From the NCBI GenBank assembly GCA_020722345.1, contig DYKZ01000001.1, positions 18,108 to 82,107 of the forward strand: 64,000 nt of DNA. The letters run 5' to 3'. Below are positions 1 to 8,237 of this stretch, piece after piece. A program made the translations under genes and the position numbers. The notes under the pieces were generated by a model. It was given only the letters and a program-made list of their open reading frames with translations, was not told where the DNA came from and did not search any database. The stretch's first letter is position 1. Every line of letters begins with the position of its first letter. This DNA is from Anaerolinea thermophila (lineage in GTDB: Bacteria > Chloroflexota > Anaerolineae > Anaerolineales > Villigracilaceae).

Positions 1-324
1 CGAGTTCACTTTACCTGCGAGGCAGAAAAGCTGGACAGCATCGGTCGGGTAATTGACTTCAACGACATCAAGTCACGCCTGTGCATGTGGCTCGAAGACG
101 AGTGGGATCACAAGACGCTCATCTGGGAGAACGATCCTTGGGCAAAGGTTCTGCCCAGCATCGACCCCACGATTGTCATCGTGCCGTTCAACCCGACGGC
201 CGAGAACATCGCGCGATACCTCGTCGAAGTCGTGGGGCCGCAGCAGCTCCAGGGCACCGGCATCAAGCTCGTCCACTGCGATGTCGAAGAGACGCGCAAG
301 TGCTCCGCCTCTTTCCACGCATAA
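1..324 (+). CDS. queD: 6-carboxy-5,6,7,8-tetrahydropterin synthase (QueD), 5'-truncated by window edge
   Basis: Frame 1 is open from nt 1 to TAA 322-324. The translation ...[52 protein letters not shown] matches the C-terminal half of PTPS/QueD (IDFxxLK, DHxxL, NPTxENIA, ET). Confidence 0.8.
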
Positions 325-334
325 GGTGACCCAA

Positions 335-1231
335 ATGAAGAAACTCAGTATCGGTGAACTCAACACGCTGGCCAAGCGCACGGCCCAGCAGATCAACAGC
401 GCCCGCGTAGCGGGGCAGATCGCGGGGCTGGTGGCTTACCCCATACCCCGTGGCGGTGTCAGCGCTGCGCTGGCTGTAGTCGCCTGCCTCGACGGTATGG
501 TGCTGACCGAGAACCCTGCCGAGGCGGACTTTTTCCTGGACGATCTGATCGACAGCGGCAGCACGATGGAACGCTGGTGCGACGAGCATCCGGGCAAGCC
601 GTTCTTCGCACTGATCGACAAGAAGTCCGAACCCGAGTTTCGCGACCGCTGGGTCGTGTTCCCGTGGGAGGAGACTGCCGAGGCTGGTATCGAGGATCAC
701 ATCGTGCGTCTGCTGGAATACGTCGGCGACGACCCATCGCGCGGCGGTCTGCTGGAGACGCCCAAGCGCGTAGCGAAGGCGTGGCGCCACTGGTGCGGCG
801 GCTACGGTAAGGATCCGAAAGAGCTGCTCAAGGTGTTCGAAGACGGTGCCGAGAAGCATGACCAGATGGTGACGGTCAAAGACATCCCCATCTACTCACA
901 CTGCGAGCACCATCTGGCTCCCATCTTCGGCACCGCGACCATCAGCTACATCCCGAACGGAAAGATCGTCGGTCTGAGCAAGCTGTCGCGCCTGGCGGAT
1001 ATGTTTGCGCGGCGCCTGCAAGTGCAGGAACGCCTGACCGACCAGATCGCGGACGCGCTGTTCGAGCACCTCGGAGCGAAGGGCGTCGGTGTGGTTATCA
1101 AGGCCCGCCATATGTGCATGGAGTCCCGGGGCATCTGCCAGCAAGGGCACCACACCATCACGACCGCGCTGCGCGGTGCCATGCGCGATGAGCCCGACAC
1201 CCGTGCCGAGTTTCTTCGGCTTGCCCAGTAA
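335..1231 (+). CDS. folE: Fusion protein: N-terminal Gpt-like type I phosphoribosyltransferase domain plus C-terminal GTP cyclohydrolase I (FolE)
   Basis: ATG at 335 starts MKKLSIGEL. The PRPP loop [12 protein letters not shown] and the ending RWVVFPWEE resemble xanthine-guanine PRTase. The C-terminal half has [40 protein letters not shown] and HMCMESRGI, all typical of FolE. The 392-aa track ORF's first 94 aa are an out-of-frame read through queD. Confidence 0.85.
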
Positions 1232-1247: not shown

Positions 1248-1278
1248 AATAACGGGACATTATCGATGTCCCGTTATT
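1248..1278 (+). promoter_or_regulatory. Perfect 13-bp inverted repeat (AATAACGGGACAT / ATGTCCCGTTATT, 5-nt loop) between folE and dpdA
   Basis: Read directly from the sequence. It sits just 5' of the GGAGG (1281-1285) and ATG 1290. No U-run follows. Confidence 0.4.
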
Positions 1279-1289
1279 ACGGAGGTCTC

Positions 1290-2210
1290 ATGAATATATT
1301 CATGGCGGCCGTTTATACGAACGGCTACATGCCGGGGCAAACCCGACACGCCAAGCTGACTGAACACGAGCAGAACATCTGTAAGAACCTGCCGCACATT
1401 CTCGAATCGTATCACTACGTCGGGAAACAGAAATACGTCGATGACATGCGTCGCGATGGTGCTAAAGTGTTCCTCGACTCCGGTGCGTTCTCTGCGTACA
1501 CGCTGGGAGTGGACATCAGCGTGGCTGAGTATTGCGACTATATCAATCGCAACCGAGACATCATCCGGGTTGAGGATGGTGTCATGATGGCGTCTGTGCT
1601 GGACGGCATCGGTGACCCGCTACAGACGTGGCGCAATCAACTCGAGATGGAGCAACGCGGGGCGAAGCCGCTGCCATGCTTCCACGCTGGTGAGGATGAG
1701 CGTTATCTGGAATGGTACGTCGCCAACTACGAATATATCACGCTGGGCGGCATGGTGGGCAGCTCCACGAAACAGCTCTGCATCTGGCTGGACCGCATGT
1801 GGGATCGCTACCTGACCGACGGTAGCGGGAACGCACGCATCAAGGTTCACGGGTTCGGCATCACCTCCATTCCTATCATGGAGCGCTATCCGTGGTATTC
1901 CTGTGACTCGTCCTCCTGGATTCAGTCTGCTGCGTTCGGTAGCATTGTTACACCGAAGCACGGGCCCATAAGCGTGTCCGAGAAGTCCCCCAGCAGGCAT
2001 GACGCGGGGCAGCACGTAACCACACTGACGCAGCAGGAGCAGGACTACGTTCTGCAGATGCTCGAGGAACAGGGCTTCACCTATGAGCGCCTGTCGTCTG
2101 TGTACGAATCGCGTGCCGCGTACAACCTCTGGGCATTCGGTGTTATCAACACTATGATCAACGCTGCGAACTCCGAGAAGTTCAAGGCCCGTGTCCAGGA
2201 GCTTTTCTGA
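1290..2210 (+). CDS. dpdA: DpdA-like DNA-guanine transglycosylase (TGT superfamily, 7-deazaguanine insertion into DNA)
   Basis: TGT-like motifs are present: VFLDSGAFS, ITLGGMVG, VHGFGIT, CDSSSW. There is no tRNA-TGT zinc site. The gene lies next to queD/folE. ATG 1290 has a GGAGG 4 nt upstream, whereas the in-frame ATG 1266 lies inside the hairpin. Confidence 0.75.
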   Translation: MNIFMAAVYTNGYMPGQTRHAKLTEHEQNICKNLPHILESYHYVGKQKYVDDMRRDGAKVFLDSGAFSAYTLGVDISVAEYCDYINRNRDIIRVEDGVMMASVLDGIGDPLQTWRNQLEMEQRGAKPLPCFHAGEDERYLEWYVANYEYITLGGMVGSSTKQLCIWLDRMWDRYLTDGSGNARIKVHGFGITSIPIMERYPWYSCDSSSWIQSAAFGSIVTPKHGPISVSEKSPSRHDAGQHVTTLTQQEQDYVLQMLEEQGFTYERLSSVYESRAAYNLWAFGVINTMINAANSEKFKARVQELF

Positions 2211-6183: not shown

Positions 6184-6535
6184 CGCTGCGCAGGCCTGTG
6201 ACTGGCGCTGCACCGCAGCCTGGTTCAACAGCGACCCAGCTACCCGCATGACAGCGGACGGCCCGAACCTTGCTGCCTACGGGCAAGCCGGCGCAAGCGG
6301 GGCGGAGGCGGTGTCGCGGTGCAAGCTGGACGTCGCGTATGCGGTGACCGAACTCGCCAAGCGGGAGGAGTTTCAGAGGAAGTGTTATGACCTGTATCGC
6401 GCTGACGTGCGCGAGGACATGCGGGCCGTAGATGCGCGGGTCGGTACGTCACCGTCGCGTGTGGACATTCATATCAACATTGAGCGGGAGAACGACAATG
6501 CGCCTCTTTATCAAGATCCCTGCCTGCGCTCGTGA
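6140..6535 (+). CDS. hypothetical secreted protein
   Basis: Internal ATG 6140 has GGAGGTG upstream. The N-terminus MKASVALISLLLSANAAQA looks like a Sec signal peptide. The upstream part of the 230-aa track ORF is Arg/Pro-rich and not protein-like. Confidence 0.5.
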   Translation: MKASVALISLLLSANAAQACDWRCTAAWFNSDPATRMTADGPNLAAYGQAGASGAEAVSRCKLDVAYAVTELAKREEFQRKCYDLYRADVREDMRAVDARVGTSPSRVDIHINIERENDNAPLYQDPCLRS

Positions 6536-6620
6536 TTGGCGGTGCGGTCGCCTGGATCCTAATCGAAATCTTCTCGACGATCAACACCGCCCTCACTACC
6601 GCCATGAAGGTCGCAGGGGG

Positions 6621-6989
6621 CTAGAGCGCCACTCCCGCTGACCAGCCGCCTGCCTTGAACGCGGAGAGCTTCTCCTCGTCCTCGATGTATGCGACCCAGC
6701 CAATGCGCGGTTGCGCGAATACCCAGGAGCCGGCCGGCGTGCCCGGAACCCATACGGCGACGTTTCCGTCGTACCCCAGCCAGGCATCGGTGGCGCCGGT
6801 CGGGACAATGTAGGTGTCGCCTTCTGCTGGTGCGCCTGGAGGTGCGGTGAGGTCGCGGTCCTTCACGGACAGGTGAAAGCCGAAGCGTCCCATGCGCAGC
6901 AGGTTCGCGTCCATGCCGGCGTTCCAGCCGTTCTCACCATACGTCCAGCCCCAGGCAAAGCCCGAGCGCGGTTCAGTCTTCGATGCCAT
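6621..6989 (-). CDS. DUF2793-like tail fibre-associated protein
   Basis: GDTYIVPTGATDAWLGYDGNVAVWVPG..WVFAQPRIGWVAYIEDE matches the DUF2793 pattern as I recall it (GDrYiv..atGaW.G....a.w..g.W.f..P..GW). It is the last gene of the tail module. Confidence 0.6.
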   Translation of the reverse strand: MASKTEPRSGFAWGWTYGENGWNAGMDANLLRMGRFGFHLSVKDRDLTAPPGAPAEGDTYIVPTGATDAWLGYDGNVAVWVPGTPAGSWVFAQPRIGWVAYIEDEEKLSAFKAGGWSAGVAL

Positions 6990-7001
6990 GTTGTTCTCCT
7001 G

Positions 7002-8237
7002 TTACGGGTTGCGCGGAACGAGGCCCGGGATCACCTCGAACTCGATGTTTGGGTCAAGATAAACGATGCGGTCAGGAAGCTGAAACCAGTCATAAGGCGA
7101 CGTGATCTTGCGCCGCGGCTTCAGCGCGCCGGTCGTGGCGTTGTCCAGGAGCTTCTGCTTGACCGCCTGAACCTGCGCCCGGGTCGTCAGCCTCCGGTAG
7201 CCCTGGAGCATACAGGCTACCACGCCGGCGACTATGGGCGTTGCGTAGCTCGTCCCGTTGCCGAGCCGGTAGCCGCCCCCCTCGGACGCCCTCTGAGCCG
7301 ATAGCGTGCGCTGGGCCGGGGCGAGAATGTCCACGTCAGTCAGGCTCCAGTTCGTCCCGTAGCCCGATTCAGGCGTGTAGTACGGGGTGTCATCCGGGGC
7401 GAGCCCGCCGCACACAATGGTGTCCGGGTCCGACTCCGCCGGGCGGATCACGGAGGCCGTGATGTCGGTCGCCTCGTTGCCTGCGGGATAGCAGCAGACG
7501 ATCCCCGCGTTGATCATGTCCGTCACCGCGGCGTCGATGGTACTGGAGAAGTCGGACCAGCTCATGAACATCACCGCCGGGCGGTCATCGTCCGCTTGGG
7601 TGTTGTACTGGGACAAGATCGCGCCCATGGCGGCGACCGCGTTGGTCACGCTTGCTCCCGAGTGGGCGTCGTAGAACTTCATGGAATGGCCGCGGGCTTC
7701 GCGGGCGATGCCGACCGTGCGCCCGAGGGCGAGCCCGAGGCAGTGCGAACCGTGACCGGAGGCGTCCAGCTCCGCTTTCGCGTAGTTCGAACGGTAGTGC
7801 CAATATTGGTTGACCCGGCCCCCGAACTCCGGGTGCGTGTACTCCACCCCGGAGTCGATGATAAAGATGTCCACCCCCGCTCCGGTCCGCTTCGCGTTGA
7901 ACGTCGAAGTGCGCGGGAACGGCAGCGCCCCGCCTCCGGGCGTCCACCACGGGTTCCTCCGGCGGATAACCCGGGCGGCGGACCAGCCGCCGGTTCCCCG
8001 CATGTTCTGCTCCAATACCAATTCCTGGAAGCAGGGCGTCAGTTCCTCGTCACCGTCATCGACGGCCTGGACCGAGGGGTGGGCGCGGAACGGAAATGCC
8101 GCCGCGGCCACTCCAGGCACGCGGAGATGGCGAGGAAGGCCCGGGAAGGGCTCAATGGTCAGGCCCGCGGCCCGGACCTCCTCCGCGAAGGCCGCGGCGA
8201 GGTCGGGCGACTTCAGCACAACGATAGTCTCAGCCAT
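7002..8237 (-). CDS. Subtilisin-family (peptidase S8) serine protease with N-terminal propeptide-like domain
   Basis: Catalytic triad contexts: IIDSGVEYTHPEF (Asp), SGHGSHCLG (His), GNGTSYATPIVAGVVA (Ser). About 110 aa lie N-terminal to the Asp box. Confidence 0.85.
   Translation of the reverse strand: MAETIVVLKSPDLAAAFAEEVRAAGLTIEPFPGLPRHLRVPGVAAAAFPFRAHPSVQAVDDGDEELTPCFQELVLEQNMRGTGGWSAARVIRRRNPWWTPGGGALPFPRTSTFNAKRTGAGVDIFIIDSGVEYTHPEFGGRVNQYWHYRSNYAKAELDASGHGSHCLGLALGRTVGIAREARGHSMKFYDAHSGASVTNAVAAMGAILSQYNTQADDDRPAVMFMSWSDFSSTIDAAVTDMINAGIVCCYPAGNEATDITASVIRPAESDPDTIVCGGLAPDDTPYYTPESGYGTNWSLTDVDILAPAQRTLSAQRASEGGGYRLGNGTSYATPIVAGVVACMLQGYRRLTTRAQVQAVKQKLLDNATTGALKPRRKITSPYDWFQLPDRIVYLDPNIEFEVIPGLVPRNP

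Follow-up and report, generated by a model that had tools for sequence, protein, structure and literature searches.

The open reading frame (ORF) at 335-1231 of the DNA analysed here (64,000 nt of contig DYKZ01000001.1, Anaerolinea thermophila assembly GCA_020722345.1; the whole stretch is referred to as the window) encodes a protein of 298 amino acids (aa) that joins a putative Gpt-like phosphoribosyltransferase (PRT) domain to a guanosine triphosphate (GTP) cyclohydrolase I (FolE) domain. This PRT-FolE fusion proved to be a widespread phage architecture, not a peculiarity of the window locus, and is almost always encoded in phage deazaguanine clusters together with the DNA guanine transglycosylase DpdA. 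What is new is the widespread combination of two known enzyme families, with a new minimal PRT subfamily as one of the partners. The protein may act as a bifunctional enzyme, in which a minimal 6-oxopurine (guanine) phosphoribosyltransferase (PRTase) that converts guanine and phosphoribosyl pyrophosphate (PRPP) to guanosine monophosphate (GMP) is combined with GTP cyclohydrolase I; a probability of roughly 0.5 is assigned to this reading.

Domains of the PRT-FolE protein

The C-terminal part of the protein (aa 119-298) was identified by profile and predicted fold as a complete, canonical FolE. It matched Pfam PF01227 with 234 bits (cut-off 27; E 8e-70) over model positions 1-178 of 179 and TIGR00063 with 216.4 bits (curated cut-off 181.6). 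The T-fold was recovered with Foldseek against Thermus thermophilus FolE 1WM9 (E 7e-23, template modelling (TM) score TMt 0.92, root mean square deviation 1.3), and identity to this protein over the C-terminal 180 aa is 48%; both the zinc and the catalytic motifs are kept. The zinc-binding and catalytic roles of the CEHH and HxC motifs are presumed by analogy to E. coli FolE. Compared with canonical FolE, the fusion bears an additional N-terminal enzyme-like domain, the typical phage FolE (phrog_2197) having a length of ~200 aa. The unfused FolE of phage 9g is functional by complementation (PMC6884629).

Family profiles were required to reveal the homology of the N-terminal part. Used as a single 120-aa query, it reached 11.8 bits with Pfam PF00156 (cut-off 26.3; E 0.15) and 15.5 bits with the NCBIfam xanthine PRT model NF006613 (cut-off 138; E 0.009), and phmmer gave no significant match for it in the PDB. 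A profile of 75 domain sequences, in turn, matched xanthine-guanine PRTase (XGPRT) of Yersinia and E. coli in the PDB over its full length (E 8.6e-10), followed by other purine PRTases; its matches also included PyrR, a regulatory protein with a PRT fold. PF00156 was matched individually by 33 of the 75 family members (E≤0.01). AlphaFold modelled the whole protein with a predicted local distance difference test (pLDDT) score of 95.9 and a predicted TM score of 0.80, and the PRT domain alone with a pLDDT of 97.1. When this domain was submitted to Foldseek, XGPRT ranked first (E 9e-6, probability 1.0, TMq 0.64-0.70), the best 22 matches were XGPRT or the Pyrococcus purine PRT, and 49 of the 50 matches with E≤0.001 were purine PRTases, the remaining one being a ppGpp-binding protein with a PRT fold (5vog). 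Given the full-length profile match and the Foldseek match, the resemblance to XGPRT is therefore well above chance. By profile and model, the N-terminal domain is predicted to have a genuine, very divergent Gpt-like type I PRTase fold, whose nearest relatives appear to be XGPRT/Gpt and not APRT, OPRT or regulatory PRT proteins.

An earlier interpretation of this DNA (the sequence-only reading) had proposed a Gpt-like PRTase fused in frame to a complete FolE. The PRPP loop and the RWVVFPWEE ending were found where it had placed them, and a PRGG loop is present as well (Table 1). The fusion was found to be a single ORF with a FolE half that is complete by both family models, and structure prediction bore out the PRTase fold. 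The term Gpt-like was upheld with respect to fold, nearest relatives and conserved ligand residues, but the domain is not a normal Gpt, as the segment with the strand and flexible loop II is gone and the scores lie far below the curated cut-offs.

Conservation was counted over 235 non-redundant domains with pairwise identities of less than 70%. The residues of the pyrophosphate (PPi) loop (P38, R39, G40 and G41; PRGG aligned to SRGG) were conserved to 94-99.6%, the acid pair to 99.6% (D69) and 98.7% (D70), and D73, which aligns to D92 of XGPRT, to 97%. The phosphate cradle (S74, G75 and T77) reached 92-100%, with 100% for G75 and 99% for T77. Values of 87% and 97% were obtained for K96 and W106, and of 93%, 98%, 98% and 97% for F109, P110, W111 and E112 of the C-terminal FPWE motif. 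In an alignment with bacterial Gpt and the PRT of Cellulophaga phage phiST, the PRPP-, PPi- and purine-site positions were invariant. The conserved positions are taken to match the XGPRT residues for pyrophosphate, ribose, 5'-phosphate, purine N7, O6 and the ring face. D73 would presumably be the counterpart of the catalytic Asp of XGPRT/HGPRT, which makes contact with N7 of the purine, an interaction with no partner in a 7-deaza base, whereas K96 and W106 are assumed to correspond to the O6-binding Lys and the base-stacking Trp of XGPRT, respectively. The PRPP loop is the counterpart of loop III of HPRT (EDIIDSGLT), which holds the PRPP motif (PMC6783271).

The XGPRT enzymes of E. coli (1A95/1NUL) and Yersinia pestis (6KP5/6KQC), the best profile and structure matches, share with the PRT domain the fold, the SRGG/PRGG loop, a DDxxD(S/T)GxT PRPP loop, the Lys, the stacking Trp and an xPW(D/E) ending. 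They comprise 152 aa, whereas the fused domain has ~113 aa, is 16-20% identical to them and is the only one of the two fused to FolE. To our knowledge, at ~113 residues the domain would be smaller than any known PRTase. The top viral fold match (BFVD) was the phiST protein CGPG_00045 (M4T1R9), which was also hit by the family hidden Markov model (HMM; E 6e-20) and ends in WIVFPWEK, compared with RWVVFPWEE in the fusion. This phiST PRT is a standalone protein of 142 aa that has kept the loop segment (NC_020842.1, 28218-28646, minus strand; locus L160). Its gene lies near ribonucleotide reductase (RNR) and ~19 kb from the que cluster, and the FolE of phiST is without a PRT domain. In phiST all G is replaced by 7-deazaguanine (dDG), and the study reporting this is silent on CGPG_00045 (PMC10516641).

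Ratios of nonsynonymous to synonymous substitution rates (dN/dS) were 0.35-0.49 for the PRT domain and 0.08-0.18 for FolE; the PRT domain evolves faster than FolE yet is still under purifying selection. Identity to Nipunavirus isolates was 55% for the PRT domain and 91% for FolE. A break in similarity was seen inside the PRT domain near aa 62, with aa 1-62 (335-520) strongly diverged from these isolates, and the sequence pattern suggests allele shuffling within the PRT-folE gene.

Distribution and genomic setting of the fusion

The fusion ORF was intact in 19 Nipunavirus-like isolate records. By tblastn, the PRT domain was detected in 34 phage records, in each case beneath a gene annotated only as GTP cyclohydrolase; these comprised the 19 Nipunavirus-like records, 42-kb phages of Pseudomonas, Stenotrophomonas and Variovorax, Vibrio phages VpKK5/033B and 1.207.B, and Sphingomonas phage MMDA13. 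The window protein shared 67-100% identity with more than 120 metagenomic protein clusters of 292-307 aa. Two scans of IMG/VR yielded 125 contigs with the domain, of which 121 encoded FolE fusions and one was cut at the contig end; the remainder consisted of one contig with adjacent PRT and FolE ORFs (L143) and two with standalone copies (L075 and L156).

It is extremely improbable that the fusion arose by an assembly or annotation error and that its halves are truly separate genes. Such an error might be suspected because the RefSeq record of phage PaMx25 lists two genes, because two adjacent ORFs are present in the distant contig L143, and because the window looks composite further downstream. 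However, a Logan contig of run X1 spans nt 1-856 of the window without a single difference, and the ORF is likewise uninterrupted in a 23-kb contig of run X9; the fusion junction thus lies within single contigs of two independent runs. The ORF is moreover intact in the isolates, protein clusters and IMG/VR contigs listed above, and the break in depth and GC content at ~6.0-6.98 kb is remote from it. An assembly artefact is excluded. In the PaMx25 record (NC_041953.1) the locus appears as a 'hypothetical protein', gp38, and a 191-aa folE. A natural split was considered and rejected, as the PaMx25 DNA holds an uninterrupted 297-aa ORF (6337-7230) with no indel relative to phage TIVP-H6. Gp38, in a different reading frame, is probably spurious, and the annotated start of folE is internal. 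L143 (6905-7939) encodes, within a dpdA-queC cluster, a 146-aa PRT ORF that is separated by 3 nt from an E. coli-type FolE ORF, and the tail of its PRT (DDSIVGTITNR...FFANDN) reappears in members that are fused to the E. coli-type FolE subtype. Separate ORFs in relatives, which the sequence-only reading had named as the sign of an artefact, are hence limited to one distant natural split and one annotation error, and neither of these speaks for an artefact.

An exhaustive profile search returned 1710 representative proteins at E≤1e-3, compared with seven in a word-indexed search with the domain alone. Among the best 150 of these 1710 representatives, 88 were without FolE. The possibility of many standalone forms was dismissed after an IMG/VR scan with these 'standalone' proteins, in which 67 of 69 new loci were fusions; the representatives lacking FolE are therefore probably for the most part gene fragments from short contigs. 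In some metagenomic fusions (P0011 and P0059, 582-583 aa; L028, 6905-8647), the FolE domain contained an intein with an HNH endonuclease.

Wherever the flanks of the IMG/VR contigs permitted, the fusion was found among queC/queD/queE and dpdA. The clusters differ in gene order and chemistry, with Gat-QueC, plain QueC, QueF-L or no QueC, and two FolE subtypes. Four loci were candidates for a fusion without DpdA, as they had been missed by the DpdA model, but all four carry phrog_887 homologues. A standalone copy of 141 aa (P0002; L003, 8001-8426; also L004/L156), 54% identical to the window domain, is encoded on a phage contig with DNA polymerase A, dCTP deaminase and a SNF2 helicase, adjoining a gene with an Acb2/Tad1 hairpin domain; no que genes were detected within ~8 kb of it. 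A defence or anti-defence PRTase was likewise considered and not retained: PADLOC gave no match, and the sole hint was the Acb2/Tad1-like neighbour of this one standalone copy.

The domain appears to be rare outside phages. A scan of bacterial genomes gave at least 14 relatives, and among the matches listed five came from uncultured Dehalococcoidia and Omnitrophota and were either fusions or fragments, the rest being ordinary Gpt-like genes. In the fusions from metagenome-assembled genomes (MAGs) of Dehalococcoidia (Table 1), CE(R/K)H stands in place of CEHH, and the HxC motif has changed as well. The neighbours of L165, the only Dehalococcoidia locus with readable ORFs, resembled ordinary metabolic genes when judged by eye. 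The altered motifs suggest that these fusions may represent a diverged paralogue with a different function.

PRTases are not mentioned in Hutinet 2019, Hutinet 2023 or the papers on iggy/Queuovirinae and MMDA13, and in the literature searched 'DpdA' and 'phosphoribosyltransferase' occurred together only in a single paper, on antibiotic gene clusters. Its absence from the main deazaguanine papers agrees with what the sequence-only reading had surmised, and the architecture is apparently undescribed, though visible in domain databases, given that the pair PF00156+PF01227 is precomputed on one protein-database cluster (P0211). A parallel is provided by Gat-QueC of Queuovirinae clusters, likewise a pathway enzyme with an added N-terminal catalytic domain. 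Gat-QueC has already been described and shifts the end product (dG+, not dPreQ0), whereas PRT-FolE is independent of the end product.

Gene layout and apparent composite structure of the window

The fusion ORF starts 10 nt past the stop codon of queD (322-324), whose 5' end lies beyond the start of the window (Table 1). It is followed by dpdA, a sliding clamp gene and a DNA polymerase gene. The hairpin between folE and dpdA has no T-run behind it and includes ATG 1266, the first ATG of the dpdA ORF; at the equivalent position, the PaMx25 annotation places a 'terminator'. ATG 1290, which is preceded by GGAGG, is more likely to be the true start of dpdA.

Table 1. Features of the PRT-FolE locus and related fusions (positions in the window, or in the locus named)
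Feature	Position (nt)	Strand	Basis or remark
queD, 3' part (6-carboxytetrahydropterin synthase)	1-324	+	Pfam PTPS E 5e-7; cluster-derived QueD HMM E 5e-51
Shine-Dalgarno-like AAGGTGA	323-329	+	5 nt ahead of fusion ATG; read from sequence
PRT-FolE fusion ORF	335-1231	+	ATG 335, TAA 1229-1231; 298 aa + stop
Putative minimal Gpt-like type I PRTase domain, aa 1-113	335-673	+	profile, Foldseek, PF00156 in relatives
PRGG loop, aa 38-41	446-457	+	matches SRGG pyrophosphate loop of XGPRT
PRPP-binding loop, aa 66-77, with D69, D70, D73	530-565	+	family conservation
Lys96	620-622	+	aligned to XGPRT Lys115; alignment
RWVVFPWEE, aa 105-113	647-673	+	W106 aligned to XGPRT Trp134, E112 to Asp140
Linker TAEAG, aa 114-118	674-688	+	least confident block of AlphaFold model, pLDDT ~78
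GTP cyclohydrolase I (FolE) domain, aa 119-298	689-1228	+	Pfam, TIGR00063, fold
FolE CEHH motif, aa 190-193	902-913	+	
FolE RHMCME motif, aa 258-263	1106-1123	+	
Perfect 14-bp hairpin between folE and dpdA	1248-1278	+	RNA fold -21.6 kcal/mol, z -3.4
dpdA (DNA guanine transglycosylase)	1266-2210	+	phrog_887 E 6e-100; DpdA HMM E 2e-183
Dehalococcoidia MAG fusions	L161 6872-7780; L163 6872-7843; L165 6989-7909		profile scan

The first ~6 kb of the window are ~81% identical to Nipunavirus (Queuovirinae) phages of Pseudomonas, Xanthomonas and Variovorax. The gene order of these relatives is queE, gat-queC, queD, PRT-folE, dpdA, clamp and polymerase, with queE and gat-queC located upstream of the point that matches the window start and hence outside the sequence analysed. 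With dpdA encoded next to queD and PRT-folE, the window carries a deazaguanine cluster of the Queuovirinae type.

Only 1-6.3 kb are Nipunavirus-like (~80-81% identity); the GC content is 58.8% over 1-6.9 kb and climbs from ~58% to ~64% near 6.0-6.7 kb. Over 17.9-64 kb, the window matches Yuavirus phages, among them PSP2, at 94-96% identity, and this segment adds a second DNA polymerase, RNR and an integrase. In run X1, which holds 99% of the sequence words of the window, the depth is 74-82x up to a contig break between 6918 and 6979 and 260-330x beyond it. The window is thus either a chimera assembled from two phages or a recombinant present as a minority. Genes past ~6.9 kb should not serve as context for the PRT-FolE ORF, which is itself unaffected, as are its immediate neighbours. 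A 411-aa ORF at 7002-8237 on the minus strand shows apparent subtilisin-type Asp/His/Ser motifs (DSGV..., HGSH, GTSYATP), and the tail-gene region around it had no close match in the phage collection.

Possible function of the PRT domain

On the bifunctional reading, FolE would begin the synthesis of preQ0/G+ by consuming GTP, and DpdA would swap the finished base for guanine in phage DNA, with the release of free guanine. The PRT domain would turn this guanine, together with guanine from the breakdown of host nucleic acid, and PRPP into GMP, which the host kinases Gmk and Ndk would bring back to the GTP pool. Precursor supply, one GTP being spent per base inserted, would thus be upheld; at the same time, guanine would be cleared, a base that DpdA is able to put back into DNA and that competes with the deazaguanine. 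Being fused, both activities would be co-expressed 1:1. The truncated PRT domain is probably mounted on the FolE oligomer, which, as a guess, could help it to assemble or supply a lid.

Several observations are consistent with such a role. Among them are the proximity to XGPRT/Gpt in fold and profile, the 87-100% conservation of the ligand-binding and catalytic positions and the purifying selection on the domain. Bacterial DpdA is assayed in vitro by the exchange of [14C]guanine into DNA (PMC10164549). As DpdA accepts free guanine, guanine is both by-product and competitor. The fusion is present in every cluster type and involves two FolE subtypes, which suggests that it acts where all these pathways meet, at guanine and GTP, and not in the tailoring of the product. 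The conserved D73, aligned to the N7-contacting Asp, is easier to reconcile with a true purine than with a 7-deaza base, and the 54%-identical standalone copy and the full-size relative in phiST argue that the PRT domain is able to function without FolE. The sequence-only reading had gone further and suggested that the fusion could couple base excision to resynthesis of the base. In support of this idea, the fusion adjoins dpdA, but direct substrate channelling is impossible, because GMP is two kinase steps (Gmk and Ndk) away from GTP. The link of the PRT domain to guanine released by DpdA is therefore plausible and not exclusive, because the Dehalococcoidia fusions occur without detected que genes and a standalone copy was found in a que-less phage stretch.

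A number of points weigh against a bifunctional enzyme. Purine salvage is usually available from the host itself. Chemistry does not account for the near-obligate fusion, given the two kinase steps between GMP and GTP. Many deazaguanine phages do without a PRT domain, including those with the short FolE typical of phrog_2197, and no Escherichia phage was among the 34 tblastn matches. The domain scores under both curated cut-offs (PF00156 and NF006613). Its deletions were defined by alignment with the phiST PRT, a bacterial Gpt and a short Gpt-like protein from an alphaproteobacterium: relative to Gpt and the phiST PRT, 18-26 residues that include a core strand and the first part of flexible loop II are missing, and ~9 hood residues before the C-terminal Trp are absent. 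Flexible loop II closes over the active site (PMC6783271). Finally, no que genes were detected near the Dehalococcoidia fusions with the cluster HMMs (E≤1e-4), where the search for dpdA relied on one model, derived from phage DpdA1 proteins.

The loss of flexible loop II and of part of the hood would also fit a PRT domain that is not catalytic, but adjusts FolE as a sensor of guanine nucleotide, PRPP or (p)ppGpp, or serves the FolE decamer and its partners in oligomerisation or docking. PRT folds do serve as regulators (PyrR), and the ppGpp-bound 5vog is among the fold matches; in HPRT, the same pocket accommodates ppGpp (PMC6783271). That the N-terminal fusion is near-obligate and has a linker of only five residues suggests dependence on FolE, and in the Dehalococcoidia fusions the domain is joined to FolE-like parts of altered catalytic motif. 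A non-catalytic module is nevertheless considered somewhat unlikely: positions required only for chemistry (D69/D70, D73 and the PPi-loop Arg) are nearly invariant, standalone or split forms exist (L075, L143 and L156/P0002), and the relative in phiST is both full-size and standalone.

Alternatively, the domain could be a 7-deazaguanine PRTase that joins preQ0, 7-carboxy-7-deazaguanine (CDG) or the G+ base to PRPP, yielding nucleotides that would enter nucleic acid at the nucleotide level, be stored or be a means of detoxification. In the tubercidin and toyocamycin pathways, PRTases attach a deazapurine base to PRPP; ToyH is taken to be an enzyme of this kind. These PRTases are standalone, act on a deazapurine base on the way to a nucleoside and belong to clusters without transglycosylases. 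In tubercidin-family clusters, which use CDG as a building block, a PF00156 PRTase is encoded with FolE, QueD and QueE homologues (bioRxiv 10.64898/2026.04.15.718813). Such an activity would agree with the association of the domain with deazaguanine clusters in 121 of 125 contigs and with the presence of a related PRT in phiST, which has 100% dDG, RNR and a MazG-like gene; the recognition of O6, N1 and N2 would moreover be alike for guanine and 7-deazaguanines. It is, however, quite unlikely. DpdA needs the free base and is encoded at every locus examined, so that formation of the nucleotide would drain its substrate, and insertion is post-replicative in all known cases (Hutinet 2023). Moreover, D73, the 97%-conserved counterpart of the N7-contacting Asp, would face bases that are without N7 and carry bulky groups at C7, the domain is unchanged across clusters making different bases, and the nearest structures are of the Gpt type.

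A bolder version of the bifunctional reading, regarded as unlikely, would make PRT-FolE the hub of a closed guanine-to-deazaguanine cycle with DpdA, with the missing loop contributed by the FolE oligomer; each excised guanine would be captured on the FolE-PRT particle and, once reactivated by PRPP, would reappear as the next modified base. The same low expectation extends to a new deazaguanine-specific PRTase that would open a nucleotide-level route.

The analysis corrects the annotation of the split PaMx25 gene and of loci that elsewhere bear the bare label "GTP cyclohydrolase". It also places a conserved hidden domain in hundreds of phage lineages, where the fate of the guanine ejected by DpdA and the supply of precursor have been left unaddressed by the field. 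As an order-of-magnitude estimate, the ejected guanine could rival the GTP pool of the whole cell if at least one quarter of G is replaced. If regulatory, the domain would be the first control element known for any phage FolE. If active, it would be smaller than all known type I PRTases, would do without flexible loop II and would be of use in engineering DNA with high deazaguanine levels in vivo.

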